From: a virus
Taxonomy: Duplodnaviria; Heunggongvirae; Uroviricota; Caudoviricetes
IMG/VR virus record: IMGVR_UViG_2537561670_000005
Reading direction: 5' to 3' (one strand)
Length of the DNA stretch: 11,526 bases
Shown here: one piece after another, positions 1 through 11,526 of the stretch
Numbering within the stretch: the first letter of the stretch is position 1
Layout of the letters: every line of letters begins with the position of its first letter
The notes under the pieces: model-generated
Database searches by the model: none
What the model saw: the letters and a program-made list of their open reading frames with translations, nothing else
Told to the model about the DNA's origin: nothing
Position numbers and translations under genes: made by a program

Positions 1-1242
1 ATGGCGAGAAAAACACACCCATTAACCACAGTGCAGATCAAAGCAGCCAGACCAGCGCAAAAGGAGTACACCCTGCAGGACGGCGGAGGGCTTTTTCTCC
101 TGGTCAAACCGTCTGGATCAAAACTCTGGAGATTTTCCTACTACCGACCATCGGACAAAAAAAGAATATTGCTGAGTTTTGGATCGCTTGAAGATGTTTC
201 CCTGGCTGATGCCAGAAAACGCCGTAGCGAGTACAGGACGTTAATCAGTGCCGGAACTGACCCGCAGGACCACGAGAGGCAAAAAAGAGAGACAGAGGCC
301 CGAAGACAAGGGAACACGTTCGAAAATGTGGCGGCGGCATGGTACCAGGTGAAAATCAGCCAGAATCTGGCCCCCAACACGATTAAAGACATCTGGCGTT
401 CGCTGGATAAATATGTATTCCCGTTCATCGGCAACACGCCAATAGATACCCTCACCGCCCGAAGGTTCGTTGAAGTGCTTACACCCATCAAGGAGCGCGG
501 CAACCTGGAAACACTCAAGCGGGTTTTACAGCGCGTTAATGAGGTAATGGATTACGCCGCCAACAGTGGGCTGATTGATGCCAATCCGGCTATGAATGTG
601 CGTAAGGCGTTTCCCTCACCTGTAAAAAAACATATGCCAACAATCCGCCCCGAACAGCTGCCGGAGCTTATGCAGGCTTTATCAGTATCGGCAACAGAAC
701 GGCAGACCAGATTACTGATTGAATGGCAGTTACTGACCGTAACCCGTCCCGCCGAAGCGTCATCAACGCGGTGGGATGAAATCAACCTGGACGCGAAGCA
801 ATGGACGATACCTGCCGGACGCATGAAGATGCGCAGGGATCACGTTATCCCGCTTTCCGGTCAGGCTATGGCGGTGCTGGAGGCCATGAAACCAATCAGC
901 CACCACCGCAATTACGTTTTCCCAAGTCTGAAAGACCCACAGCAGCCGATGAACAGCCAGACAGCTAACGCAGCATTGCGGCGTATGGGATTCGCTGGCG
1001 TGCTGGTGTCTCATGGATTACGCGCCATATTCAGCACAGCAGCGAACGAGGAAGGATTCGAGCCGGACGTAATAGAGGCGGCACTTGCCCACGTCGACAC
1101 CAACGAAGTTAGACGGGCATACAACCGGAGCAACTACATAGAAAAACGCATCGTGCTGATGCGCTGGTGGGGCGAATTTGTCGAGGCTGCGGCGACGGGC
1201 GTAACCCTCGCCAGTGGTAAAAGGGGTATCCGAGCCGTGTAG
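1..1242 (+). CDS. int: Tyrosine recombinase, P4-type integrase (site-specific integrase of a satellite/island)
   Basis: 413-aa ORF starting at the window edge. N-terminus (AARP..Y.L.DGGGL.LLVKPSGSK.WRF.Y) is typical of the P4 integrase arm-binding domain; C-terminal catalytic signature HGLRA and the tyrosine in RRAYNRSNY are present. True start could lie upstream of the window. Confidence 0.93.
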   Translation: MARKTHPLTTVQIKAARPAQKEYTLQDGGGLFLLVKPSGSKLWRFSYYRPSDKKRILLSFGSLEDVSLADARKRRSEYRTLISAGTDPQDHERQKRETEARRQGNTFENVAAAWYQVKISQNLAPNTIKDIWRSLDKYVFPFIGNTPIDTLTARRFVEVLTPIKERGNLETLKRVLQRVNEVMDYAANSGLIDANPAMNVRKAFPSPVKKHMPTIRPEQLPELMQALSVSATERQTRLLIEWQLLTVTRPAEASSTRWDEINLDAKQWTIPAGRMKMRRDHVIPLSGQAMAVLEAMKPISHHRNYVFPSLKDPQQPMNSQTANAALRRMGFAGVLVSHGLRAIFSTAANEEGFEPDVIEAALAHVDTNEVRRAYNRSNYIEKRIVLMRWWGEFVEAAATGVTLASGKRGIRAV

Positions 1243-1319
1243 CTGTACAGAAAACCAGTAAAAACTACGAAAACCATGTAAAACCGTCGTATAATTGCAT
1301 CAAATTTAACGACAAGGCC

Positions 1320-1571
1320 GTGAAACATGAAACCGTTAAGATGCAAAAAAATATCAGATGCAATTGCGACGGGCTGCAACTGGCCCTGATGGTTCAGCAT
1401 GAATTTTGGTCAACCTACGATCCGGAGGACAGAACGACGGCCCCATCAAAAAAACAGGTAGTAGATTTTCTGGTATCCCGTGGCGCTTCCAGAAATCTGG
1501 CGGTAAGTATTGATAAGGTCGTACGTCCGGCATCTATGAAGATCGGAGGCAGGCCCAAAAAATGGCGGTAA
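1320..1571 (+). CDS. Hypothetical small protein (83 aa as drawn; start uncertain, GTG at 1320 or ATG at 1341)
   Basis: Open frame preceded by TATAAT at 1290-1295 and AAGG at 1314-1317, and followed by a strong intrinsic terminator. No recognisable family; basic C-terminus GGRPKKWR. Could equally be non-coding leader. Confidence 0.33.
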   Translation: MKHETVKMQKNIRCNCDGLQLALMVQHEFWSTYDPEDRTTAPSKKQVVDFLVSRGASRNLAVSIDKVVRPASMKIGGRPKKWR

Positions 1572-1582
1572 CAATCCTGGAA

Positions 1583-1605
1583 GCGGCAGAAATGCCGCTT
1601 TTTTT
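1583..1605 (+). terminator. Rho-independent terminator
   Basis: Stem GCGGCA / TGCCGC with GAAA loop followed by a 7-T run (aagcggcagaaatgccgcttttttt). Confidence 0.7.
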
Positions 1606-1631
1606 ATAATTCCATTTCAAATCATCAATAT

Positions 1632-1719
1632 AAAAACGGTGTATACCGTTTAAAAACGGTGGGAACTGTTTTTACCCATATCCGATGATTTACCGTATTT
1701 GTCACCGGAATACACCGGA
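1632..1719. promoter_or_regulatory. Operator-like repeats upstream of alpA
   Basis: Inverted repeat AAACGGT-gtat-ACCGTTT (1634-1651) plus a third direct AAACGGT half-site at 1654-1660 (20 bp from the first); direct repeat CACCGGA at 1703-1709 and 1713-1719. Confidence 0.4.
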
Positions 1720-1737
1720 TTCACAAGGTAAATCACG

Positions 1738-1944
1738 ATGGAAGCAATCAGAAAAATTATCTTTCGCCAGGAAGTAAAAAAAATTATCCACATCAAGGCA
1801 GACAGCACGCTGCAAAGCATGATCAACGCCGGAGAATTTCCGCAGGGTTTTCGCGTTGGTTTACGCCGTCGCGGATGGTATGAGGATGATGTGTTGGCCT
1901 GGCAGAAAGAACGCGAACAGGAAGCACGCGGAACGGCTGCTTAA
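1738..1944 (+). CDS. alpA: AlpA-family (Vis/excisionase-like, MerR-type HTH) transcriptional regulator
   Basis: 68-aa ORF with AAGG RBS at 1725-1728. The pattern ...AGEFPQGFRVGLRRRGWYEDDVLAWQ matches the AlpA signature (FP..., G.R..GW.E.DV..W); its position directly after int is typical of P4-like and PICI elements. Confidence 0.85.
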   Translation: MEAIRKIIFRQEVKKIIHIKADSTLQSMINAGEFPQGFRVGLRRRGWYEDDVLAWQKEREQEARGTAA

Positions 1945-2092
1945 CGGGTATCACAGATATGACAAACACGAAAAAAGCGGCCCCGATATGGAGCCGCCTT
2001 TCTGAACAATTAACCCGCTGCGCCTTATGTGTATATGATCCCAAACATAAGCACGGGGATGATAGCCGCTATCAGGCTGGTGGGCAATGCAA

Positions 2093-2266
2093 TCAGTCTG
2101 GTTCAGTTCGTTGCCATACCTGCAATGAGCGCTTTTCCCTGTATTCTTTAAGGAATTGCTCAAGGGCAAAAGCACATGGCGCGAATCTTTCTGATTCATG
2201 CTCTATCTTTCTGCGCCGTCTTTTCCGTGCCGGTGATAATGTTTTGGTCAATTCTTTATCGGTCAT
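2093..2266 (-). CDS. Hypothetical small basic protein (57 aa from internal ATG; 62 aa from ATG at 2281)
   Basis: ORF 42 nt downstream of the RHH gene on the same strand; AGGA 10-13 nt upstream of the ATG at 2266; contains a KRRRRK stretch. Weak support, overlaps an antisense open frame. Confidence 0.25.
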   Translation of the reverse strand: MTDKELTKTLSPARKRRRRKIEHESERFAPCAFALEQFLKEYREKRSLQVWQRTEPD

Positions 2267-2323
2267 TGTGTTGTCCTGCATAGCAATGCGCCGTAATACC
2301 TTACACCACGGCGCTGATGGTGA

Positions 2324-2629
2324 TTACTCTGGTTCTTTGGTCTTGCGGCGCTGGAGTTCTTCACGTGCGACAGTGACGAGCTGCCCGATCTCCTCGGCGG
2401 CTTTGATTCCGAGTTTTTCCACCTGCGCCAGTGCATCGTGCGAAGAAATCAGGGGGTTTTCTCCGCTTCCTTCTGCCTGGCGGCGGGCGATTTCACCGCG
2501 CATGGCGGTTACTATGAATCCGGCGTTGCTTTCACCGTCCAGTTTTACGGATTCCATGCCTTCAATAACATCATGCGGGATCCGAGCTGTCAGTGATTGT
2601 GATTTTGCGTTTTTTGAACCTGTAGCCAT
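2324..2629 (-). CDS. Ribbon-helix-helix (Arc/CopG-like) DNA-binding protein, putative repressor of the early operon
   Basis: ATG at 2629 with GAGAGGA RBS 7 nt upstream (101 aa; the track start at 2644 is a TTG). N-terminal beta-strand/helix/helix pattern SLTARIPHDVIEGMESVKLDGESNAGFIVTAMRGEIARR. Divergent from the early operon with palindromes in between. Confidence 0.75.
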   Translation of the reverse strand: MATGSKNAKSQSLTARIPHDVIEGMESVKLDGESNAGFIVTAMRGEIARRQAEGSGENPLISSHDALAQVEKLGIKAAEEIGQLVTVAREELQRRKTKEPE

Positions 2630-2650
2630 CTGTAATCCTCTCAATGAAAG

Positions 2651-2745
2651 TGTAAGACAATATACACATAAAAAGTCTTACATAAAAGCATTGACATGTA
2701 AGCCACCTATAAATAAAGTTACTTACACCTTGTTAATGCAAGGTG
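2651..2745. promoter_or_regulatory. Divergent promoter/operator region between RHH regulator and early operon
   Basis: Inverted repeats TGTAAGAC (2651-2658) / GTCTTACA (2675-2682) and CACCTTG (2726-2732) / CAAGGTG (2739-2745); a further TGTAAG half-site at 2697; candidate rightward promoter TTGACA (2691-2696)-N17-TAAAGT (2714-2719). Confidence 0.5.
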
Positions 2746-2825
2746 CAGAAACGACGAAACCCCGCACTGTAGGAGCAGTAACGGGGCTTCTAACCACCAA
2801 CGATAGCAAGATTATCGAGGCAGCT

Positions 2826-3026
2826 ATGAGAAATTATACCATACACCCGCAAGGGCGGGACTCGTACAACCTGAATAAATACATCTGGCGTTTTATCGCC
2901 CTGAGCACGGCACAACCGCGCGTGATTACCATCGAGGCCACCAGCGAACAGGAAGCGCGTCAGCAATCTCCGGCTGGCTGCGTGATGGTATTTGCTGCCC
3001 GTATTCGTCAGGGGGTAGGCTTATGA
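2826..3026 (+). CDS. Small protein (66 aa), possibly Icd-like host cell-division inhibitor family
   Basis: ATG at 2826 with GAGG RBS at 2817-2820; stop overlaps the next start (ATGA). The motif pattern ...YIWRFIAL...SEQEARQ...VMVFAARIRQ resembles what I recall of Icd-like proteins found next to AlpA/primase in P4-like islands; family assignment unverified. Confidence 0.6.
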   Translation: MRNYTIHPQGRDSYNLNKYIWRFIALSTAQPRVITIEATSEQEARQQSPAGCVMVFAARIRQGVGL

Positions 3027-3253
3027 GCCAGGAAATCACACTACAACAGGCAGCAGAACGCGCCCACCAAATCGAAGTTATTTGCGCACTGGCAGAGGAT
3101 TACCCTGGCATGATGACCGACAGCGAATCAGGGGCAATCATCGGCTTACTTAAACGCCTTAGCGGTGAGGTCTGCGTATTCCTGAGCGATGAACAGGAAA
3201 GAAGAACGCTTATTTCTAACGAAAAAAAATGCGGAGGGGTACATGTGCAATAA
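3023..3253 (+). CDS. Hypothetical protein (76 aa), early operon
   Basis: ATG at 3023 overlapping the upstream stop (ATGA), G-rich RBS at 3011-3019; no recognisable family. Confidence 0.62.
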   Translation: MSQEITLQQAAERAHQIEVICALAEDYPGMMTDSESGAIIGLLKRLSGEVCVFLSDEQERRTLISNEKKCGGVHVQ

Positions 3254-3464
3254 AACCACACCGGACGCAGCAGCCGCCGCGCTCACTACGCTGATGCACG
3301 CGCTTATCGATATTGAATGCACTGCAGAGCTTGCGCAGGGAGAAGAACAGAAAGACCGGACACAGTTCGCCCTGGAATGTATCCGATACATCGCAACACG
3401 GTCGCTGAATGACGCTAAAAATATTCTTGTTGCTGATTGTGAAAATGGGGGGGGTTATGCGTGA
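3243..3464 (+). CDS. Hypothetical protein (73 aa), early operon
   Basis: ATG at 3243 with GGAGGGG RBS at 3233-3239 (the track ORF 3189..3464 trimmed to the RBS-supported start); stop overlaps the next start. Confidence 0.6.
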   Translation: MCNKTTPDAAAAALTTLMHALIDIECTAELAQGEEQKDRTQFALECIRYIATRSLNDAKNILVADCENGGGYA

Positions 3465-3678
3465 TGATCGTTTTAATTCCCTGAAACAGGAATTTTCCGG
3501 CGTTCCTGATGATGCGGCTGATGCGCTTTCGTCAATGCCAGAACTTATTAGAGCGGCTTTTTTCTTACTTTCCACGAGAGAATATAAATCAACGGGGCTT
3601 GATGTACTGAATATCGCCGCCGATTATGCTGATTTCGTGACAGAGGTTATTTTAAGAAAAACGACGGACGGGGATTAA
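3457..3678 (+). CDS. Hypothetical protein (73 aa), early operon
   Basis: ATG at 3457 preceded by a G8 run (RBS) and overlapping the upstream stop (ATGCGTGA); an alternative in-frame ATG at 3445 lacks an RBS. Confidence 0.58.
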   Translation: MRDDRFNSLKQEFSGVPDDAADALSSMPELIRAAFFLLSTREYKSTGLDVLNIAADYADFVTEVILRKTTDGD

Positions 3679-3679
3679 T

Positions 3680-3913
3680 ATGCGTGATATTTACCACGAA
3701 ACAATAGACCGCGCATTTCTTGCACTTTCTCACAGTGAAAACATGCTGGAAATATTGCGCATATGGCTTGAAACACTTGGCGACAATGAACGCGACAAAC
3801 AAAAATCAAGAATTGCCACGGCATTAATAACGCTTCTTGAGCCTGTAATAATGGAACTGCAAGAAATAGATCTATTGCACGATAGATATAAAGAACAGCA
3901 CACCGGAGAATAA
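3680..3913 (+). CDS. Hypothetical protein (77 aa), early operon
   Basis: ATG at 3680, 1 nt after the upstream stop, GGGGA RBS at 3669-3673; predicted helical, no recognisable family. Confidence 0.62.
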   Translation: MRDIYHETIDRAFLALSHSENMLEILRIWLETLGDNERDKQKSRIATALITLLEPVIMELQEIDLLHDRYKEQHTGE

Positions 3914-3918
3914 AAATA

Positions 3919-4218
3919 ATGAAACTTAAATATTCTGGCTTAACTGCCAGTGGCAACACTCACCCTAAATTTACGCGCGGCGATATTTACCGCGACCAGT
4001 ACGGCGGCACGGTAATGATTAAGGGCGTGGCGGGACGGTGCGTAACTTACCGCCGTGAAGGTTACGAATATGATTGCGTGATGCCTGTTTATCAGTTCCG
4101 GCGTGATTTTTCTCTGGTACAGACCGCGCCGCATAACGTGCCCACCAGCAACGCCAGGGCACGGGCAAACATCCAGAAGCTGAAAACCATGATTAACGGA
4201 TTCAGGGGTAAAAAATGA
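3919..4218 (+). CDS. Hypothetical protein (99 aa), early operon, immediately upstream of and coupled to primase
   Basis: ATG at 3919 with GGAGA RBS at 3905-3909; stop overlaps the primase start (ATGA at 4215-4218). Confidence 0.65.
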   Translation: MKLKYSGLTASGNTHPKFTRGDIYRDQYGGTVMIKGVAGRCVTYRREGYEYDCVMPVYQFRRDFSLVQTAPHNVPTSNARARANIQKLKTMINGFRGKK

Positions 4219-5969
4219 AACTGGCACCGAACGTAAAACAGCAGTCACGCGGCATAAAACACAAAGGAACAGAAGTCATTATTTTTGCGGGTAGTGATGC
4301 CTGGGCACACGCGAAACAATGGCAGGAACATGATGCGCGTATGGCCGGAGATAATGAGCCTCCTGTGTGGCTTGGGGAGCAGCAGTTATCAGAACTGGAT
4401 AAGCTGCAAATTGTGCCGGAAGGCAGAAAATCCGTGCGCATATTCAGGGCCGGATATCTTGCGCCAGTAATGATAAAGGCGATTGGTCAGAAGCTGGCGG
4501 CGGCAGGCGTACAGGATGCAAATTTTTACCCTGATGGTATGCACGGTCAGAAGGTGGAGAACTGGCGCGAATATCTGGCCCGTGAGCGCCAGAATCTTTC
4601 TGATGGTCTGGTCATTGAGCTTCCGGTAAAGCAAAAGGCGCAACTTTCGCAGATGGCGGACAGTGAGCGCGCGCAGCTGCTTGCCGATCGCTTTGATGGC
4701 GTTTGCGTACATCCTGAAAGTGAAATCGTTCACGTATGGCGCGGCGGGGTATGGTGTCCGGTCAGCACAATGGAACTTAGCCGCGAAATGGTGGCGATCT
4801 ATTCAGAGCACAGGGCCACTTTCAGCAAGCGCGTAATCAATAACGCCGTGGAAGCGTTAAAAGTTATTGCCGAACCAATGGGCGAGCCGTCCGGCGATTT
4901 GCTGCCGTTCGCCAATGGTGCGCTTGACCTGAAAACGGGGGAATTTTCCCCGCACACGCCGGAGAACTGGATCACCACGCACAACGGCATTGAGTACACG
5001 CCACCAGCACCAGGGGAGAACATCCGCGATAACGCGCCAAACTTTCATAAATGGCTTGAGCACGCAGCCGGAAAAGACCCGCGCAAGATGATGCGTATAT
5101 GTGCCGCGCTGTACATGATTATGGCGAACCGGTACGACTGGCAGATGTTTATTGAGGCCACCGGAGACGGCGGGAGCGGTAAAAGTACATTCACACACAT
5201 AGCCAGCCTTCTGGCAGGGAAACAAAACACGGTAAGCGCTGAAATGACATCGCTTGATGATGCTGGTGGGCGTGCGCAGGTTGTCGGGAGTCGTCTTATC
5301 GTCCTGGCAGACCAGCCGAAATATACAGGCGAAGGAACGGGCATCAAGAAAATCACGGGCGGCGACCCCGTGGAAATTAACCCGAAATATGAAAAGCGTT
5401 TTACGGCGGTAATCAGGGCGGTGGTGCTGGCAACCAATAACAATCCGATGATATTCACCGAACGGGCCGGAGGTGTGGCACGTCGTCGGGTGATATTCCG
5501 GTTCGATAACATCGTAAGCGAGGCAGAAAAAGACAGGGAGCTACCGGAAAAGATCGCGGCTGAAATCCCTGTCATTATCCGCCGCTTGCTGGCGAACTTT
5601 GCCGACCCTGAAAAGGCACGGGCTTTACTCATTGAACAGCGTGACGGTGATGAAGCACTGGCAATAAAGCAACAGACGGATCCGGTTATTGAGTTTTGCC
5701 AGTTCCTGAATTTTCTGGAGGAAGCACGCGGCCTGATGATGGGCGGCGGTGGCGATTCAGTGAAGTACACGACCAGAAACAGCCTTTACCGCGTCTATCT
5801 GGCGTTTATGGCGTACGCAGGCAGGAGCAAACCGCTAAACGTAAATGACTTTGGCAAGGCTATGAAGCCAGCCGCGAAAGTTTACGGACATGAATATATT
5901 ACGCGGAAAGTTAAAGGAGTAACGCAGACTAACGCAATAACAACAGACGATTGCGACGCGTTTTTATAA
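4215..5969 (+). CDS. P4-family phage/plasmid primase-helicase (D5_N-like region plus SF3-type NTPase), replication initiator
   Basis: 584-aa ORF; Walker A GDGGSGKST (nt ~5163-5189), Walker B-like RLIVLADQP, and a D5-N-like stretch (FANGALDLKTGEFSPHTPENWITTHNGIEY). Followed directly by an iteron array, as for PICI pri-rep/ori. Confidence 0.93.
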   Translation: MKLAPNVKQQSRGIKHKGTEVIIFAGSDAWAHAKQWQEHDARMAGDNEPPVWLGEQQLSELDKLQIVPEGRKSVRIFRAGYLAPVMIKAIGQKLAAAGVQDANFYPDGMHGQKVENWREYLARERQNLSDGLVIELPVKQKAQLSQMADSERAQLLADRFDGVCVHPESEIVHVWRGGVWCPVSTMELSREMVAIYSEHRATFSKRVINNAVEALKVIAEPMGEPSGDLLPFANGALDLKTGEFSPHTPENWITTHNGIEYTPPAPGENIRDNAPNFHKWLEHAAGKDPRKMMRICAALYMIMANRYDWQMFIEATGDGGSGKSTFTHIASLLAGKQNTVSAEMTSLDDAGGRAQVVGSRLIVLADQPKYTGEGTGIKKITGGDPVEINPKYEKRFTAVIRAVVLATNNNPMIFTERAGGVARRRVIFRFDNIVSEAEKDRELPEKIAAEIPVIIRRLLANFADPEKARALLIEQRDGDEALAIKQQTDPVIEFCQFLNFLEEARGLMMGGGGDSVKYTTRNSLYRVYLAFMAYAGRSKPLNVNDFGKAMKPAAKVYGHEYITRKVKGVTQTNAITTDDCDAFL

Positions 5970-5982
5970 TTTGTTGCAATGG

Positions 5983-6208
5983 CTGTCTACCCTGTCTACC
6001 TGAGTAAAGAAAAATACATTTAATTCAGTGCATTAAGTTAGGTAGATAGCCTTTTTTTACTGTCTACCCACTATCTACCCTCTCTACCTGATTTTACCTG
6101 AATCAGACAGGGAGGTAGACACGGGGTAGATAGTGGATAAAAGCACTCTACCCCGCTGAAAGCCGCGCCATTACTGGCATGAGGGCCACTAAGGTAGATA
6201 GGTAGACA
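5983..6208. repeat. Iteron-type replication origin (about 12 copies of YCTACC / GGTAGA in both orientations flanking an AT-rich stretch)
   Basis: Tandem CTGTCTACC at 5983-5991 and 5992-6000; CTGTCTACCC 6060-6069; CTATCTACCC 6071-6080; TCTCTACC 6081-6088; CTCTACCCC 6146-6154; inverted GGTAGATAG 6041-6049, GGTAGACA 6114-6121, GGTAGATAG 6125-6133, GGTAGATAGGTAGACA 6193-6208; AT-rich 6001-6040. Confidence 0.75.
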
Positions 6209-6256
6209 AGGGGAGGCACAACTCAAAACTTTTTAAACGAGGGGGTAAAAATAAAT

Positions 6257-6535
6257 ATGCACACTTCAGGGAAATTTAATAAATCACTCAAAAAACGCAG
6301 AGACAGAACAGAACCGAAATATCGCGCGTTAGACATGACAGAGCACGCTTTAAAGGTGGCAATCAGAACGATAGACCGACACGTAGGGGAAGGATACGCG
6401 AAGGAACATCCCGACCTGATAAGCGCATTCATGACCACAGCAGCGGCAAACTTTGCCACGCTGACAGAACGGGAGATTGCCGAAGCGGAACAGGTAACAA
6501 CCATCAACGTTAAAACCGGAGAGGTGGAATCATGA
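6257..6535 (+). CDS. Hypothetical protein (92 aa), translationally coupled to ssb
   Basis: ATG at 6257 with GAGGGGG RBS at 6239-6245; stop overlaps the ssb start (ATGA at 6532-6535). No recognisable family. Confidence 0.55.
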   Translation: MHTSGKFNKSLKKRRDRTEPKYRALDMTEHALKVAIRTIDRHVGEGYAKEHPDLISAFMTTAAANFATLTEREIAEAEQVTTINVKTGEVES

Positions 6536-6954
6536 CAGCACAGATAGCCGCTTACGGGCGGCTGGTGGACGACCCGCAGGTAAAACAGACCAGCAAGGGC
6601 ACACCGATGACGCTGGCGCGTATGGCGGTCCCCCTTCCGTGCAGCCAGGCAGATGACGGAACGGCGACGATGTGGTTATCCGTCCTGGCATTTGGCAGAC
6701 AGGCCGAAGCACTGGAAAGGCACCGCAAGGGTGAACTCCTGAGCGTGGCGGGTAACATGCAGATCAGCCAGTGGACTGGGCAGAACGGAGAAACGCGGCA
6801 GGGCTGGCAGGTTATCGCAGACAGTGTAATCAGTGCGCGAACGGCGCGACTGGGCGGCAAAAAAGGTCAACAGGGCCAGGCTACTGACGCGCTGAACAGG
6901 GCAAAACAACAGGCGGGGAATGATGATCCGTACGGGGATAACATACCGTTTTAA
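6532..6954 (+). CDS. ssb: Single-stranded DNA-binding protein (short phage/plasmid-type SSB)
   Basis: 140-aa ORF with GGAGAGGTGG RBS; OB-fold pattern comparable to E. coli SSB (G.L..DP..., W..V.AFG..AE......KG....V.G.......W); Gly/Gln-rich linker and canonical acidic C-terminal tail ...DDPYGDNIPF. Confidence 0.9.
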   Translation: MTAQIAAYGRLVDDPQVKQTSKGTPMTLARMAVPLPCSQADDGTATMWLSVLAFGRQAEALERHRKGELLSVAGNMQISQWTGQNGETRQGWQVIADSVISARTARLGGKKGQQGQATDALNRAKQQAGNDDPYGDNIPF

Positions 6955-6970
6955 GCGACGAGTGACAGAA

Positions 6971-6992
6971 GCCGGAGCAATCCGGCTTTTTT
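6971..6992 (+). terminator. Rho-independent terminator after ssb
   Basis: GCCGGA-gcaa-TCCGGC hairpin followed by TTTTTT. Confidence 0.75.
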
Positions 6993-7140
6993 ACGGGTCC
7001 TCCTGGCGGGGTGGGCCTGAACACGGGGCGGGAGGCGCGGAAAAAAGCGCATTTTTGTGATTTTATCGTCATCATCATCATGAGCGTAATTTATTGTTTT
7101 TAATTGTTTTGATGCAAAAAAGATGATGGTTGTGGTTAAT
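6993..7140 (+). other. Degenerate lambda-like cos-derived segment (cos-like site 1)
   Basis: acgggtcctcctgg (cosQ-like) ... acggggcgggaggcgcgg (cosN-like, GGGCGGGAGGCG in place of the lambda GGGCGGCGACCT) ... cgtcatcatcatcatgagcgtaatttattgtttttaatt, resembling the lambda cosB skeleton (cgtcataacttaatgtttttatttaaaa). The terminator plus cosQ module (6971-7006) is about 90% identical to 9411-9447. Confidence 0.45.
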
Positions 7141-7173
7141 TTTCGTTCGACATCTTTGCAGGCAGATAAAAAA

Positions 7174-7208
7174 GCCCGATAAGGTCAGAGGTGGCTTATC
7201 GGGCTTTT
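7174..7208. terminator. Bidirectional intrinsic terminator-like hairpin
   Basis: Perfect 10-bp stem GCCCGATAAG / CTTATCGGGC with an 11-nt loop, flanked by AAAAAA (5') and TTTT (3'). Confidence 0.5.
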
Positions 7209-7264
7209 GCATATGAGGCTTTTTGGTGCACTGACACACATGATCGGGATAATCATTTCATAAT

Positions 7265-7334
7265 TTGCAACGCAACTCAACATCATTGCACAAAATGCAA
7301 TCATGATTATAATCAGAGCTGGATGAACATCCAG
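7265..7334 (+). promoter_or_regulatory. Putative promoter/operator of the capsid operon
   Basis: TTGCAC (7286-7291)-N16-TATAAT (7308-7313); palindromes ATTGCA-caaaa-TGCAAT (7285-7301), TTGC-aac-GCAA (7265-7275) and CTGGATG-aa-CATCCAG (7319-7334) between the -10 and the RBS. Confidence 0.4.
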
Positions 7335-7369
7335 TTATGATTTTTTAAGTCAAAGAGGAATTTCTTACT

Positions 7370-7576
7370 ATGGCTGAAGAGAAAAAAGGCGGTGTTTCGG
7401 TGTACATAAGCCCCGACATCGTGAAGGCGCTCAAGGAACGCCACCAGCAGAACGTAAAAGCAGGCATTGCGGCAGGACTTGATCCGCTGGCGATGGTTGA
7501 GCCGTCAACAGGCTGGCAGGTACGCTCCTATTTACGCGCGGCGCTGGGCATAAATCAGACTCATGGGGGTGAATAA
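7370..7576 (+). CDS. Small protein (68 aa), possibly ribbon-helix-helix-like; first gene of the capsid operon
   Basis: ATG at 7370 with GAGGA RBS at 7355-7359; stop overlaps the capsid gene start (TAATG). GGVSVYISPDIVKALKERHQQ resembles a CopG/Arc-type strand-helix motif; assignment tentative. Confidence 0.55.
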   Translation: MAEEKKGGVSVYISPDIVKALKERHQQNVKAGIAAGLDPLAMVEPSTGWQVRSYLRAALGINQTHGGE

Positions 7577-8631
7577 TGGCAGTCAAAGCAATGGCACTTA
7601 ACACACACCAGCTTTTCGCGTACCTGAATCGCGAGGATATTGCGGAATTTAAATTTAGTCCGCTGTTTACCGCGCTGTTTTTCCCGAACGTGGCGACATT
7701 CAACACGCAAAACATCATGCTGGATACCCTGGACATTGAAGAAGTCACCATGTCGGCGTTTTGTTCGCCTATGGTGGGTAGCCAGGTTCAGCGCGATAAA
7801 GGGTACGAAACCAGCACGATTAAACCTGGCTACATGAAGCCAAAGCACGAAATCGATCCAACGAAAACCATCATGCGCATGGCTGGAGAAGATCCGGCAC
7901 AGCTTAACGACCCTACCTATCGCCGTATGCGCCTGATTACTGGCAATATGCGCCGCCAGATAAACGCCATAAAAGCGCGCGTGGAATGGCTGGCGGTAAA
8001 TGCGGTAACGACCGGAAAAAACATCATTGAGGGCGAAGGCATAGAGCGCTATGAAATCGACTGGAAGATACCGGAAAAAAACATCATAGAGCAGGCCGAC
8101 GGGAAAAAATGGTCAGAGCAGGACAAAGAAACCCACGATCCAATCTATGATATCGAACTATACGCCGATCAGGCTGGTTGCCCCGCAAACGTCATGATTA
8201 TGGGCGTTGAGGTATGGCGAACGTTACGCAGCTTTAAAAAATTCCGTGAGCTGTACGATCTTTCCCGTGGTTCAGAGTCCGCCGCAGAGCTGGCCTGTAA
8301 AAACCTGGGCGAAGTGGTGAGCTTTAAAGGCTATCTGGGCGATATTGCCCTTATCGTCTATTCCGGCAAATACACTGACAGCGACGGCACAGAAAAATAT
8401 TTCCTTGATCCTGATTTGCTGGTCCTGGGCAACACCAACAACAAAGGGCTGGTGGCCTATGGTGCGATTATGGATCAGGAAGCGGTAAGAACAGGCGCAA
8501 CGCAAAACATGTACTACCCGAAAAACTGGATTGAGGACGGCGATCCGGCGATTGAGTACGTGCAGACGCACAGCGCACCGCAGCCGGTTCCGGCAGATAT
8601 TCGCAAATTTGTTACCGTCAAAATTGCTTAA
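7576..8631 (+). CDS. Major capsid protein, lambda gpE-like
   Basis: 351-aa ORF alignable along its length to recalled lambda gpE (341 aa): FKFSPLF..LFF, KPGYMKPKHE, DP.YRR.R.I..NMR, W...DK.T.DP..DIE.YA, FRSFK, SYKG..GD.A..VYSG.Y, VLGNT...GL..YG, YPKNW...GDPA.E....SAP. Confidence 0.93.
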   Translation: MAVKAMALNTHQLFAYLNREDIAEFKFSPLFTALFFPNVATFNTQNIMLDTLDIEEVTMSAFCSPMVGSQVQRDKGYETSTIKPGYMKPKHEIDPTKTIMRMAGEDPAQLNDPTYRRMRLITGNMRRQINAIKARVEWLAVNAVTTGKNIIEGEGIERYEIDWKIPEKNIIEQADGKKWSEQDKETHDPIYDIELYADQAGCPANVMIMGVEVWRTLRSFKKFRELYDLSRGSESAAELACKNLGEVVSFKGYLGDIALIVYSGKYTDSDGTEKYFLDPDLLVLGNTNNKGLVAYGAIMDQEAVRTGATQNMYYPKNWIEDGDPAIEYVQTHSAPQPVPADIRKFVTVKIA

Positions 8632-8642
8632 CGGGGGATTCT

Positions 8643-8978
8643 ATGGACACTCCATACATTGAGTTATTTGCAGGCAGTCAGCAGGTATCCACGACGCTGG
8701 TACATTTTGCCGCTGATGCTGGCGTTATTCAGGAATTTACCCCGCTGATGCTGGCGGACAATGGCGAGTTTAAGCCGTGGGATGGTCAGGAATCTGGCAA
8801 GGCTGTTTATCTGACTTCGTACCTCGTGGACACGTCAAAGCAGAAATCAGCACAGTGTTACAAGACGGGGATATTCAATATTGCCGCCGTTAACTGGCCT
8901 GAGAGCGTCGACACCGATGCGAAAAAATGCGCCGCCTTTGCGGGTTCTGGCGTATCCGTTCAGCCGCTGGCCCGATAA
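8643..8978 (+). CDS. Head decoration protein, lambda gpD-like
   Basis: 111-aa ORF, GGGGGA RBS; aligns with recalled lambda gpD (110 aa): TPLMLD/TPLMLA, WDG, YKSG.F/YKTGIF, WPE, KK..AFAG..(I/V)S. Confidence 0.82.
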   Translation: MDTPYIELFAGSQQVSTTLVHFAADAGVIQEFTPLMLADNGEFKPWDGQESGKAVYLTSYLVDTSKQKSAQCYKTGIFNIAAVNWPESVDTDAKKCAAFAGSGVSVQPLAR

Positions 8979-8990
8979 GCAGGGGGAACG

Positions 8991-9404
8991 ATGGCAACGA
9001 ATGAAAGCATCATGGCGCTACCGCTGGCGAGTAAATTTAAAGCCGAAGCGCGGGCAATGGCTGACAGAGGTTTATCAACCTACGAGGCCGTATATCAACT
9101 CAACAAACTGGAAGAGCAGGACAAGCCGCGCGCTGATGCGATTATGGCGCTTCATGAGCATAAAGACTATCAGCCGCTGTTGCGTGCAATGGCAAACGTG
9201 CCTTGTATCGATGTTGATACGGCTAAAAACATCCTGAACATGACCATAGAGCAGGAACGCCCGAAGGTTGCACCAGAGCTTACCGCAGCCTTTGAAAACT
9301 TTATGGACATGCACAGCCCACAAACCGTATCAGCTGGCATGGCATACGATGGCAGAAACCCAGGCGATGACGGCGACATCGATCGCATACTGAAAACCAT
9401 CTGA
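8991..9404 (+). CDS. Hypothetical acidic protein (137 aa), last gene of the capsid operon; candidate scaffold/assembly factor
   Basis: ATG at 8991 with AGGGGGA RBS at 8981-8987; followed by a terminator; no recognisable family. Confidence 0.62.
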   Translation: MATNESIMALPLASKFKAEARAMADRGLSTYEAVYQLNKLEEQDKPRADAIMALHEHKDYQPLLRAMANVPCIDVDTAKNILNMTIEQERPKVAPELTAAFENFMDMHSPQTVSAGMAYDGRNPGDDGDIDRILKTI

Positions 9405-9410
9405 GACAAG

Positions 9411-9432
9411 GCCGGAGAAATCCGGCTTTTTT
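9411..9432 (+). terminator. Rho-independent terminator after the capsid operon
   Basis: GCCGGA-gaaa-TCCGGC hairpin followed by TTTTTT; near-identical to the terminator at 6971-6992. Confidence 0.75.
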
Positions 9433-9510
9433 GCGGGTCCTTCCTGGAATTATGGCCCGTTACGGGGCGGCGACCTCGCGGTTTTTCGCTATTTATGAGC
9501 TTTTTCAGGG
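9433..9510 (+). other. Lambda-type cos site 2 (cosQ + cosN, plus orientation, cosB truncated)
   Basis: gcgggtccttcctgg ... ttacGGGCGGCGACCTcgcggtttttcgctatttatgag matches the recalled lambda right-end/left-end junction (cgggtcctttccgg...ttacg|GGGCGGCGACCTcgcgggttttcgctatttatgaaaa); the 12-nt cohesive-end sequence is at 9465-9476. Downstream sequence diverges from lambda R sites. Confidence 0.8.
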
Positions 9511-9609
9511 GGGTGGTGGTGGTTTTGTTGTTTGCTCTATCTTTATGAATGAAAAGGGAAAGATGCAAACAATACACCAACCTGAAGCAGTAATTAAGTT
9601 GGTGTATTA

Positions 9610-10152
9610 ATGAAATCGCACCTGATGAACAAAAAAAACATGGCGAAAAGCTGCCGTGTAAGTGCGACAGCGTTCGACAAGTGGGGAGTGACTCCCGTTG
9701 AACGTAAAGGCCGTGAGGCGTTTTACGATGTTGCCAGCGTGATAGACAATAGGGTTAACAATGCAATTAGCCAGCTTACAAACGACAAAGGCGATATTGA
9801 TGATGATGAACTCTTACGAGTCAGGATCAGATTACTGACAGCACAGGCGGAGGCGCAGGAACTTAAAAACGAGCGCGATCGCGGTGACGTGATTGATACT
9901 GAGTTTTGCCTGTACGCGCTTTCAAAGCTGGCGAGTCAGATTTCATCAATCATGGACAGCCTCCCGCTTACTATGCAAAGGAGCTTCCCACAGATTACCC
10001 CCGCCATGCTGGATAGGCTTAAAAGGGAAGTGGTTAAAGCCTGTAATGCCAGTGCCAGAGTTGCCGACAACCTCCCACAGATACTGGCTGATTACTTGAA
10101 AGAAACAACCGGAAACGTACCGGAAAAGTTGCTACAGAAGAAAGGCGAGTAA
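9610..10152 (+). CDS. Terminase small subunit, lambda Nu1-like (start uncertain: 9610, 9625 or 9640)
   Basis: 180-aa ORF; strong similarity to recalled lambda Nu1: LTAQAEAQELKNERDRGDVIDTEFCLYALSKLASQISSIMDSLPLTMQRSFP vs RLTRAQADAQELKNARDSAEVVETAFCTFVLSRIAGEIASILDGLPLSVQRRFP; the N-terminus MNKKNMAK... (from 9625) parallels MEVNKKQLA..., and FYDVASVI parallels LYDSAAVI. Weak RBS at all candidate starts. Confidence 0.9.
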   Translation: MKSHLMNKKNMAKSCRVSATAFDKWGVTPVERKGREAFYDVASVIDNRVNNAISQLTNDKGDIDDDELLRVRIRLLTAQAEAQELKNERDRGDVIDTEFCLYALSKLASQISSIMDSLPLTMQRSFPQITPAMLDRLKREVVKACNASARVADNLPQILADYLKETTGNVPEKLLQKKGE

Positions 10153-10169
10153 CAGACGCGCAATTATTG

Positions 10170-10378
10170 AACAAAACTGAGAAACGACATGAAAGCGTCA
10201 TAAATCGCCATTTTAGATGATTACCGTGTCGTTTCTTTTTATTGTGTATCTATTTAAAAACAAATAGTTATGTTCGAGAAGTACCGACATGCTTTTTCCA
10301 GAAAAATTTTCATAAACAGATAAAAACCGCGAGGTCGCCGCCCCGTAACGGGTCCATAATTCCAGGAAGGACCCGACG
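10170..10378 (-). other. Lambda-type cos site 3 (cosQ + cosN + cosB-like R elements), minus orientation
   Basis: The reverse complement reads cgggtccttcctggaattatggacccgttacGGGCGGCGACCTcgcggtttttatctgtttatgaaaatttttctgg...ataactatttgtttttaaatag...aaaagaaacgacacgg...tgtcgtttctcagttttg, colinear with recalled lambda cosQ-cosN-cosB (tttatgaaaattttccgg, ataacttaatgtttttatttaaaa, aaaggaaacgacagg, tgtcgtttcctttctctgtttttg). Confidence 0.8.
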
Positions 10379-10408
10379 ACACCAGACAATCAGAACGATG
10401 GGTGCACA

Positions 10409-10690
10409 ATGACAGAAGCCGAAATACTGGGATTAATCCGCCGTGCTGGTGGAATCAGCCAGCAGACTGACGAACAGGCCACGCAGCCGGACAGCGTGAC
10501 AGCCGAAAATTATGCGCGTGTTGTTGCTGAGGTGATGCGCCGTGATGGTATCCAGCTTAATGATGTGGATATGCGCAACATACGGATCCGCGTTCTTGAA
10601 ATGCTGGCCTACAATCGCCGCGTGGCACTGTATCGGGAAACGGAGAAAATTACATACCACTGGAAGAAGCCGGAGCGGTTGCGGCGGTAA
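10409..10690 (+). CDS. Hypothetical protein (93 aa) between inverted cos site 3 and the terminal repeat array
   Basis: ATG at 10409 with weak RBS; basic C-terminus; no recognisable family. Confidence 0.5.
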   Translation: MTEAEILGLIRRAGGISQQTDEQATQPDSVTAENYARVVAEVMRRDGIQLNDVDMRNIRIRVLEMLAYNRRVALYRETEKITYHWKKPERLRR

Positions 10691-10863
10691 CTGGTTGATA
10701 TTTTCGAAATTCGCCAGCGGCGAACATCGGGGAAACCAGCCTAACCCGTTGATATTTTCGGGAACCTCAAATTGAGGAGGTCGGAAACATAACCCGTCAT
10801 ATTCTGGATGCTGATAATTACCACGCAGCCCATTAAGGCCTAACCCGTTGATTCTTTCGGAAA
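10688..10863 (+). repeat. Array of four ~21-bp direct repeats (consensus TAACCCGTTGATATTTTCGG) at ~50-bp spacing
   Basis: taactggttgatattttcgaaa (10688-10709), taacccgttgatattttcgggaa (10742-10764), taacccgtcatattctggatg (10790-10810), taacccgttgattctttcggaaa (10841-10863); a palindrome CCTCAA-a-TTGAGG lies at 10765-10777. Confidence 0.7.
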
Positions 10864-11283
10864 CAGCCATTGGCGTAATCCGGCGCGGTAACTTGCTGAA
10901 CTTAAAGCAAAGCGCAAAATTGCGCTGGCTGGTGGGCATGATGCCGATATGGTGATCCCCATAACGGAAATATCCACCAGCACGGCAACGGCAGAATAGC
11001 CACAACACAGAAAAACCACGAATATGGGGTTTTTGTTATGGCATGGGCATGATGACCGCCCCTGCTCTGAATGGTGGAAATCACCACGCAGATCATCCAC
11101 CAGCTTCGTTTTTATAAATTAAACATCCGGGAAAATCCGACCCTGAATTGTGCATTTTTTCAGCAAATCATTTTAGTTATACGTTTGGTTATACGGTTTA
11201 AAAGTTGAATCATATACATTATTTTAAATCATGAAGTTACACGCTCAATTAAACTACTCTCGTGGACCAAAAATCCCAAGAAA

Positions 11284-11310
11284 ACCAACCTATTGCGGTT
11301 GGTTTTTTTA
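11284..11310. terminator. Intrinsic terminator-like hairpin near the right junction (probably bidirectional)
   Basis: AACCAACC-tattgc-GGTTGGTT followed by a T-run on the plus strand and preceded by AAAA (a T-run on the minus strand); lies between the element and the convergent flanking gene. Confidence 0.5.
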
Positions 11311-11370
11311 TATCTGCATTTAATTCGATAAACAGACAGCGACACATCACGGCCTGTTTATTTTCTGTTA

Positions 11371-11526
11371 TCAGAACGTCCAGACTACACCCGCCTGAGT
11401 TGTGCTGCTTTCTTCACGGGAGAAACGGCTGTCGATACCAAGCGTTAGCCCCGTCAATGTTTGCTCAAAGCCAGCGCCTGCATCAGTGGTCACGTTGTTG
11501 CGGCTGTTAATTGCCGAACTCCACAT
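11371..11526 (-). CDS. 3' end of a flanking chromosomal gene (partial, continues beyond window); C-terminus ...GIDSRFSREESSTTQAGVVWTF suggests an outer-membrane beta-barrel-type protein
   Basis: Minus-strand frame open from the window edge to TGA at 11373-11371 (51 codons); the terminal aromatic residue (…VVWTF) is a common feature of OMP C-termini. Not in the ORF track because it is under 60 aa and truncated. Confidence 0.35.
   Translation of the reverse strand: MWSSAINSRNNVTTDAGAGFEQTLTGLTLGIDSRFSREESSTTQAGVVWTF

Follow-up and report, generated by a model that had tools for sequence, protein, structure and literature searches.

The control region between the divergent repressor-like and Icd-like genes of the window (the whole stretch of 11,526 nt that was analysed) contains a hairpin, HP2, that is conserved in pairing as an RNA of the minus strand, opposite the early operon. 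On that strand it is followed by a U-rich tail, and a -10 motif lies upstream, within the first codons of the Icd-like gene. These features suggest that HP2 is the intrinsic terminator of a short cis-antisense RNA that would cover the start codon and the Shine-Dalgarno sequence of the Icd-like gene and block its translation. We give this reading a probability of about 0.62; the production of the RNA, its start and end positions and its function are predictions from sequence throughout.

A divergent control module in a phage satellite

The window is a PICI-like, capsid-forming phage satellite of E. coli Nissle 1917, whose chromosome is 100% identical over 801 bases around the control region. 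It shows the hallmarks of Gram-negative PICIs and cf-PICIs: int, an alpA-like gene and a primase gene in the same orientation, its own capsid and terS genes, and insertion at a tRNA gene (in the RefSeq annotation, a tRNA-Pro gene adjoins the island holding the window). The genes for SSB, the major capsid protein, the head-decoration protein and the small terminase (terS) are also on the plus strand, and the gene of the YlcI/YnfO family is the sole minus-strand gene of the island. Several small ORFs lie on the plus strand among the island genes. The genes used below are as follows.

1-1242, plus strand: integrase gene (RefSeq)
1738-1944, plus strand: small helix-turn-helix gene, AlpA-like (weak AlpA match, E = 0.0035, below the Pfam cut-off)
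2324-2629, minus strand: putative repressor gene of the YlcI/YnfO family, 101 aa (NCBIfam NF041551, E = 1.9e-20; RefSeq; pN/pS 0.35)
2826-3026, plus strand: Icd-like gene, 66 aa, heading the early operon (NCBIfam NF033153, E = 3e-19; RefSeq; pN/pS 0.30)
4215-5969, plus strand: P4-family primase gene (RefSeq and family searches)

The control region sits between the YlcI-like gene (minus) and the Icd-like gene (plus). The putative repressor matches YlcI_YnfO_N of NCBIfam only, with no match in Pfam even at E = 10 and no relative found among PDB sequences. A ribbon-helix-helix (RHH) fold is plausible for it; a single-sequence structure model, of low confidence (pLDDT 60), has helices at residues 19-25, 32-53 and 63-97. 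The elements between the two genes are listed here.

2650-2660, plus strand: operator-like site S1 (GTGTAAGACAA) of a TGTAAG array, adjoining the start of the repressor gene
2659-2664, minus strand: predicted -10 of the repressor gene (TATATT), within the conserved motif CA(G/A)TATAC(A/G)C, with no notable -35
2673-2683, minus strand: operator-like site S2 (ATGTAAGACTT on this strand), 23 bp from S1
2691-2719, plus strand: candidate early promoter (TTGACA 2691-2696, 17-bp spacer, TAAAGT 2714-2719), start at about 2726
2696-2706, plus strand: operator-like site S3 (ATGTAAGCCAC), directly 3' of the early -35
2718-2728, minus strand: operator-like site S4 (GTGTAAGTAAC on this strand), overlapping the early -10 and start
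2726-2745, no strand assigned: palindrome/hairpin HP1, CACCTTG-N6-CAAGGTG, at the predicted 5' end of the early mRNA

A first-pass annotation of this DNA had described two inverted repeats here, overlapping the early promoter and likely to be operators. Both repeats are present, TGTAAGAC at 2651-2658 with GTCTTACA at 2675-2682, and CACCTTG at 2726-2732 with CAAGGTG at 2739-2745; with arms of 7-8 nt in an AT-rich stretch of 340 nt, they do not by themselves exceed chance. The clustering of TGTAAG does: four of the window's eight copies fall within 77 bp, where about four would be expected per whole 11.5 kb. These four copies alternate in orientation, with centres at 2655, 2678, 2701 and 2723 (spacing 23, 23 and 22 bp), and the TGTAAGAC/GTCTTACA pair is one half of this four-site array. 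The overlap with the early promoter does not hold for that pair, which lies upstream of it and over the likely repressor promoter; the CACCTTG/CAAGGTG repeat lies at about +1 to +20 of the predicted early transcript. The other half of the array (2696-2706 and 2718-2728), absent from the first-pass annotation, brackets the early -10. The early promoter was the one sigma-70-type site found by a promoter scan, with 10 of 12 matches.

The same architecture is shared by elements of other genera and by many E. coli elements: a site beside the repressor start is followed by CA(G/A)TATAC, an A-rich run, the CTTGAC(G/A) -35, and two further sites flanking the early -10. The -35 is kept across related control regions, and CA(G/A)TATAC(A/G)C holds its position in otherwise dissimilar ones, where we infer that it serves as the minus-strand -10 of the repressor gene (TATACT or TATATT). 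The operator cores vary from element to element (GTGTAAGAC, GGTGGCATTCA, GTGCTATTCAC, GTGTGGCCGCAC and others) while their positions relative to the conserved -35 and -10 motifs are constant; the equivalent of S1 (O_L), for example, is shared in position and differs in core sequence. Because related elements keep the layout and change the site sequences, the putative operator role of the TGTAAG sites is supported, and the variation in the cores is the pattern that would be expected for repressor-operator pairs of differing immunity specificity.

The arms of HP1 are kept, with variable loops, across elements whose operator cores differ. The operator reading is thus supported for the TGTAAG sites and not for CACCTTG/CAAGGTG with its constant arms; if HP1 is an operator, it would be one of another kind. 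Its fold has no clear strand bias (minus favoured in 30 variants, plus in 21), and a few arm substitutions, in loci L055, L071 and L011, retain pairing only as G.U on the minus strand. HP1 may be a 5'-terminal stem-loop of the early mRNA, a conserved protein site, or a piece of a minus-strand transcript. Taken together, the data support a divergent control region with repressor-operator-like repeats, as had been proposed, and the best explanation of this region is that it is the immunity/control module of the satellite.

A conserved hairpin on the strand opposite the early operon

The elements downstream of HP1 are listed here.

2743-2755, minus strand: U-rich tail (UUUCGUCGUUUCU) with which the predicted antisense RNA would end, corresponding to a plus-strand flank that is A-rich in every variant
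About 2745-2827, minus strand: predicted cis-antisense RNA of about 80 nt, with inferred ends, consisting of a 5' hairpin, a conserved connector and a terminator
2756-2790, minus strand: HP2, predicted intrinsic-terminator stem-loop of the antisense RNA (covariation, wobble asymmetry, fold energy)
2791-2800, no strand assigned: near-invariant core (UAACCACCAA on plus, UUGGUGGUUA on minus; columns of alignment A2), on the plus-strand 3' side of HP2
2797-2819, no strand assigned: HP3, holding the icd Shine-Dalgarno sequence GAGG (2816-2819); the complementary sequence forms the 5' hairpin of the predicted antisense RNA
2833-2841, minus strand: extended -10 TGGTATAAT of the predicted antisense promoter, within codons 3-6 of icd

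The first-pass annotation had described HP2 as a hairpin of the early-operon leader that presents AGGAG in its loop and lacks a T-run, and had proposed it as an RNA-level regulatory element. The hairpin does fold in this way on the plus strand, with an outer stem CCCCG/CGGGG, an inner stem ACUGU/GCAGU and a loop AGGA (-16.6 kcal/mol, z = -3.45 against shuffles), and its outer stem is lengthened by GAA/UUC past an A.C mismatch. No T-run follows it on the plus strand. Icd-like loci were gathered from species-representative genomes, IMG/VR and metagenomes, and a hairpin is found at the same place in every one of them with upstream sequence; all variants fold. The sequence of HP2 is highly variable and its pairing is kept, with 66 distinct versions including a wholly different GAGGCUG.../...CAGCCUC form. 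The AGGAG loop is restricted to the window's variant and its closest relatives and is replaced elsewhere by unrelated loops (CGCUAA, CUCGCAA, UCGUUAC, UUGCCG and others), so that it is specific to a variant and not a feature of the element.

Three independent features, namely fold energy, wobble pairs and the tail, place the selected RNA on the minus strand. In 34 of 35 distinct variants the more stable fold is that of the reverse complement, with a mean of -23.8 kcal/mol versus -17.5 kcal/mol for the plus strand. In alignment A2, made on the minus strand from 74 sequences with 66 distinct HP2 variants, 99.8% of the cells form standard pairs. Compensatory changes occur there in 10 of the 17 pairs of the two-hairpin structure and in 7 of the 11 pairs within HP2, values reached by none of 500 shuffles. 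When three alignments were pooled (151 distinct rows), the paired positions held 2197 Watson-Crick pairs, 222 G.U pairs and no A.C on the minus strand, and the plus-strand reading of the same rows gave 222 A.C mismatches and no G.U; many of the aligned sequences are close relatives, and such cell counts overstate the number of independent events. Since each minus-strand G.U corresponds to an A.C mismatch on the plus strand, neither a plus-strand RNA nor a DNA structure is expected to yield this one-sided wobble pattern. The plus-strand 5' flank of HP2 is always A-rich, which gives a U-rich tail on the minus strand only. The proposal of an RNA-level element thus survives, since HP2 is a real and selected one, whereas its assignment to the plus-strand leader does not.

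Two other explanations of the conserved pairing were considered and set aside. An N-terminally extended Icd that includes the hairpin (in-frame ATG at 2736) does not fit, because the reading frame differs between loci and the pairing, not a peptide, is conserved. For a tRNA-like substrate of RNase P, suggested by a conserved ACCA after the stem, the strand evidence points the other way.

On the antisense strand, HP2 has the makeup of an intrinsic terminator, a GC-rich stem-loop followed by a U-rich tail; the tails, which read UUUGCUUUUU, GUUGUUUUUU and similar in other loci, have a mean T content of 53%. A Lesnik-type terminator score, which is a rough guide only, exceeded 0 in 93% of 129 distinct contexts when applied to the minus strand and in none when applied to the plus strand, with a minus-strand mean of +14.3. 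The window itself scores weakly, at +4.6 versus 43-48 for two strong terminators, the trp attenuator and an rrnB T1-like sequence. Because the U-tract of the window is interrupted, read-through toward the repressor gene is possible. HP1 was rejected as a second terminator: its tail is too U-poor (d of about -17, a hand estimate by the same formula), and one locus (L009) has no U-tract there.

Because all downstream genes are on the plus strand, a minus-strand terminator needs a nearby minus-strand promoter. In the window, TGGTATAAT is a perfect extended -10 on the minus strand. Among 68 distinct 5'-coding contexts, 66 carry a hexamer TA[TG][AG][ACG]T whose distance from the start-codon complement is either 4 or 10 nt. 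The more diverse class, of 27 sequences, keeps -12T, -11A and -7T without exception and varies at -10 to -8 and in the surrounding codons. Within the class of the window, TG and TA...T are invariant and the adjacent codon positions 1 and 2 change the amino acid (R/L/K, Y/H/N, T/I, I/T/R). This pattern fits a promoter constraint; a constraint on the protein could contribute, as the hexamer coincides with conserved His-Thr/Ile codons. No good minus-strand -35 was found for this promoter. With a start about 7 nt downstream of the -10, the 5' end of the RNA is predicted to coincide with the start codon to within a few bases.

The predicted RNA of about 80 nt folds into two hairpins at -34.5 kcal/mol (z = -4.94). 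In the collected loci, HP2 is followed in plus-strand order by the near-invariant UCUAACCACCAAC and then by a small hairpin with the icd Shine-Dalgarno sequence; in the window, the last positions of the 2791-2800 core overlap the base of that hairpin, HP3. HP3 shows compensatory changes too, from CGAUA/UAUCG to CGUUA/UAACG. A covariance model of the minus-strand RNA (R1) gave a minus-strand match immediately 5' of the Icd-like gene in every further locus with upstream sequence (66 and 86 matches in two further locus sets, at 38-99 bits); on the plus strand it gave only two weak partial matches.

Proposed mechanism and competing explanations

In the mechanism that we propose, the YlcI/YnfO repressor would bind the four TGTAAG sites, which bracket both the early promoter and the promoter of the repressor gene itself. 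The extended -10 promoter inside the first icd codons, which looks constitutive, would fire toward the early promoter and give an antisense RNA (about 2826 to 2745) fully complementary to the start codon, the Shine-Dalgarno sequence and about 80 nt of the 100-nt leader. Its pairing would block initiation on the Icd-like gene, the first and probably toxic early gene. P1 Icd is a small protein that inhibits division by targeting FtsZ (PMC11897509), which makes it plausible that leaky expression of the Icd-like product does harm. Pairing may also trigger duplex cleavage by RNase III or Rho polarity and so lower the products of the downstream replication genes: because the Icd-like gene heads the operon, loss of its translation could leave the C-rich leader open to Rho, or the RNA duplex open to RNase III. 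Leaky or low-level early transcription would thereby be silenced until the promoter is fully derepressed, and the terminator would keep antisense polymerases off the early promoter, the operators and the repressor gene.

The main rival also takes HP2 as a minus-strand element, as an attenuator in a longer transcript from the icd-internal promoter, whose read-through would mainly express the repressor in the manner of lambda P_RE. A weak terminator score in the window (+4.6) and a mean score that is no more than modest (+14.3) agree with this, as do the position of the repressor gene directly downstream on the same strand and the HP1 arm substitutions that pair only as minus-strand G.U. The retention of a U-rich tail after the GC-rich stem in 93% of contexts argues for termination instead, HP1 is without an overall strand bias, and the repressor gene has its own conserved -10 motif beside O_L; we consider the attenuator unlikely. 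That HP2 terminates the mRNA of a small minus-strand protein has the least to recommend it, and we give it almost no credence. The 58-aa ORF in question (2966-2790) does end at the foot of the hairpin, but the position of its stop is not conserved (36, 2, none, 12 and 18 nt, and others), several divergent loci have a short frame, and purifying selection acts on the plus-strand Icd frame (pN/pS 0.30).

Readings that place the function on the plus strand or in the DNA have to meet the wobble asymmetry. The first-pass reading, a leader hairpin that presents AGGAG and acts in an RNA-based immunity like that of P4, here widened to one like that of P4 CI or P1 c4, can draw on the fold of the leader itself (three hairpins, z = -3.33) and on the position of the hairpin upstream of an Icd-like gene, as P1 c4 is upstream of icd (PMC8198154). 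It is nevertheless very improbable: 222 wobbles turn into A.C mismatches with no G.U gained on the plus strand, 34 of 35 variants fold less stably on the plus strand, AGGAG is not kept in the loop, and the C4/isrK models of Rfam are unmatched at E up to 10. A Nus/boxA-type or rut site on the plus strand, with a boxB-like hairpin followed by the C-rich, G-poor UCUAACCACCAAC and a role in early antitermination or Rho termination, would account for the near-invariance of that stretch, in which GCUUCUAACCAC loosely resembles the rrn boxA, GCUCUUUAACAA. That likeness needs a gap and extends to about 7 of 12 positions, there is no Rfam match, and the minus-strand wobble asymmetry is left unexplained, which makes such a site a poor candidate. 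A DNA-level palindrome, be it a protein-binding or recombination site or a cruciform, has hardly anything in its favour beyond the inverted repeat within a regulatory region and the mosaic module boundaries near the hairpin. The sequence varies freely with its pairing kept (66 variants), and mismatches of the G.T type on one strand only are explained neither by DNA pairing nor by a sequence-specific protein.

A long open frame adds a further observation on this region.

1959-3026, plus strand: 355-codon open frame that overlaps the repressor gene in antisense and continues across the control region into icd

In the window, the icd frame is open from 1890, with an ATG at 1959. Stops upstream of the icd ATG were counted in 49 mutually dissimilar control-region clusters. 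From -210 to -90, the 120-nt promoter/operator part, the icd frame is free of stops in 80% of them versus 16% and 6% for the other frames; over the 700 nt from -700 to -1 the values are 53% versus 6% and 0%, and loci with a closed icd frame have another of the frames open in its place. The product of the long frame is hardly constrained (pN/pS 0.69 for 1959-2323 and 0.88 for the intergenic part, compared with 0.30 for Icd and, when its own frame is read, 0.35 for the repressor). PGAP calls such frames as "Icd-like" proteins of 320-600 aa, which explains the odd partial "Icd-like" pseudogene annotated at 1959-2438. In one locus (L300), a first copy of the leader/antisense module lies behind a different small repressor, and it is there that the long frame begins; before reaching the Icd domain, the frame crosses two genes of the minus strand and a second control region. 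A tentative and on balance doubtful account is that AlpA-activated upstream transcripts need continuous translation of this "spacer ORF" to escape Rho while running antisense to the repressor gene and its operators; such transcripts would flip the switch and carry ribosomes into the Icd domain, and the antisense RNA would act as a gate on this route too. Alternatively, the long frame is possibly a real fusion protein with an unconstrained linker.

Distribution and relation to known systems

Of 5426 complete E. coli genomes, 1328 (about 24%) have matches to the 99-bp locus, at up to six places per genome, and the annotated features under the matches listed are Icd-like protein calls or none, never an RNA gene. 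The locus further occurs in Escherichia ruysiae, Shigella, Cedecea, Rahnella, Enterobacter, Superficieibacter, Rosenbergiella, Intestinirhabdus and Tenebrionibacter. Literature searches on the core sequence, on Icd-like/YlcI proteins in satellites and on antisense RNA in PICIs found no description of the element. Cis-antisense RNAs of the sar/OOP/SymR type, with a promoter and an intrinsic terminator of their own, are a well-known kind of regulator, and the present one would be a new family of that kind. Regulation of Gram-negative PICIs has been described to act via the activator AlpA, and the existence of a repressor was called unclear (PMC6092414). The locus would add two control layers, a divergent repressor-operator module and a probable antisense RNA. 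If the RNA is made, it represents an unannotated regulatory RNA family at the entry of the replication operon of PICI, cf-PICI and P4-like satellites, in a region that current annotation hides under "Icd-like" ORF calls of 320-600 aa. Its near-invariant core suggests that co-resident satellites may cross-talk.

C4-family RNAs, such as P1 c4 and P4 CI, are sense-encoded and processed. An analogy to this family, of which the first-pass annotation had loosely invoked the P4 immunity, is not supported: cmscan against Rfam (the whole window at the gathering score, and 2300-3300 on both strands at E up to 10) gave no C4/isrK match, the permissive search returning chance-level matches only (snoZ168, SprD), and, to judge by the wobble asymmetry and the U-tail, the RNA is encoded opposite to the operon. 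In P4, the CI RNA in the leader of the early/replication operon limits that operon through seqA/seqC pairing, which leads to premature termination. The satellite host and the location in the leader region of an early/replication operon are common to both; unlike CI, which is sense-encoded and processed, the RNA predicted here leaves the C4/CI model unmatched, and a protein repressor with putative operators is present in addition. The c4 RNA, encoded in sense upstream of icd, arises by processing of the operon transcript and pairs via loop sequences, whereas the RNA predicted here is on the opposite strand and fully complementary to its target, with the C4 model unmatched. The target itself is similar, as c4 of P1/P7 blocks expression at the start of icd, the gene that heads its operon (PMC8198154). 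The Icd-like protein of the window showed no detectable similarity to P1 at E <= 1e-3; in a phage collection it matched one induced satellite-like record only, and the leader DNA matched nothing there.

In the SymR/SymE type I toxin-antitoxin system, a constitutive small antisense RNA covers the translation start of a small toxic protein (PMC5415839, a review in which the P22 sar RNA also appears). The predicted RNA likewise covers the translation start of a small, potentially toxic protein, but here this is the first gene of a long mobile-element operon and not a stand-alone toxin. The closest functional parallel appears to be the P22 sar RNA, rather than P4 CI or P1 c4. In the immI region of P22, sar is a short cis-antisense RNA whose promoter faces the main regulated promoter and which covers the ribosome-binding site of an early gene, as a secondary layer beneath protein repressors. 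The two RNAs differ in several respects: they have no similarity in sequence or structure (no Rfam match), the target is the antirepressor gene ant in P22 and an Icd-like gene here, and the present RNA is predicted from sequence and belongs to a phage satellite. What they would share is the arrangement, in which a short cis-antisense RNA from an opposing promoter covers the ribosome-binding site of an early gene beneath a protein repressor.

Variation of candidate operators and possible exchange in the leader

We compared the operator region of the window with those of related loci (L003, L008, L009, L011, L012, L015, L020, L027, L068 and others). The positions of the operator-like sites (window 2640-2730 and equivalents) are common to related satellites, and the promoter motifs CAGTATAC and CTTGAC are conserved among them, whereas the 9-11-bp cores of the sites differ. 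This combination of fixed positions and differing cores suggests many immunity specificities among the satellites, a situation known from lambdoid phages. Homology between elements begins or ends at about 2725, 2757 and 2781-2784, breakpoints pointing to the leader (the 5' UTR of the Icd-like mRNA) as a place of mosaic exchange. A fifth TGTAAG copy was found on the minus strand at 2300-2305, just beyond the 3' end of the putative repressor gene and about 350 bp away from the operator array; it could be a distal site or a chance occurrence.

Two further features concern the region upstream of the Icd-like gene:

Window 2726-2745: palindrome CACCTTG/CAAGGTG, arms conserved, loop variable
L005 2869-2997: Icd-like gene with a different upstream region, Escherichia albertii

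The palindrome arms, but not the loop, are kept across elements whose operator cores differ. Three arm substitutions were observed (L055, L071 and L011), and in each the arms still pair on the minus strand alone, as G.U, but the palindrome showed no clear strand bias overall. Upstream of the Icd-like gene, the E. albertii locus keeps CTTACCAC and the Shine-Dalgarno context AACGTTACAGGAGG. This upstream region had no recognisable copy of the hairpin, and L005 was not matched in the search with the covariance model of the predicted antisense RNA.

Tandem modules

The module of predicted antisense RNA and leader occurs twice in locus L300 (251-336 and 1118-1203), and eight other elements also carry two copies (L225, L275, L277, L297, L298, L315, L318 and L319). 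Paired copies lie on the same strand with 750-870 bp between them, and each is preceded by a different small divergent repressor, Arc-like or YlcI-like; they are therefore immunity modules in tandem. In these elements a long open frame connects the leader of the first copy with the second Icd domain.

The long open frame of the window

1890-3026, plus strand: long open frame, same phase as the Icd-like gene, ATG at 1959

This frame runs without stop codons across the control region and antisense over the repressor gene, and a similar one is present in L002, L003, L006, L008-L012 and most IMG/VR loci. Among 49 dissimilar clusters, the operator region had zero stops in the Icd-like frame in 80%, versus 16% and 6% in the other frames. 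The pN/pS of 0.69-0.88 indicated weak amino-acid constraint. PGAP labels such frames as 'Icd-like' proteins of 320-600 aa, which accounts for the partial pseudogene annotated at 1959-2438. At its start (1959-2080) the frame codes for a conserved N-terminal motif, M-x-x-KTKAA-x-x-GR ... AGGQ, also found at the equivalent ORF starts of L006, L009, L010 and L011. Pfam and NCBIfam models gave no match to the window's own sequence there; among the relatives that the long ORF has in databases, some bear the name Ash family (PF10554 on P0112).

Identity of the island

In Nissle 1917 (L001; window 1-11526) the island lies beside tRNA-Pro, downstream of yejM. Its major capsid, head-decoration and small-terminase genes are its own, so it is a capsid-forming satellite of the PICI type. 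It differs from Gram-negative PICIs as published by having a divergent repressor-like gene.
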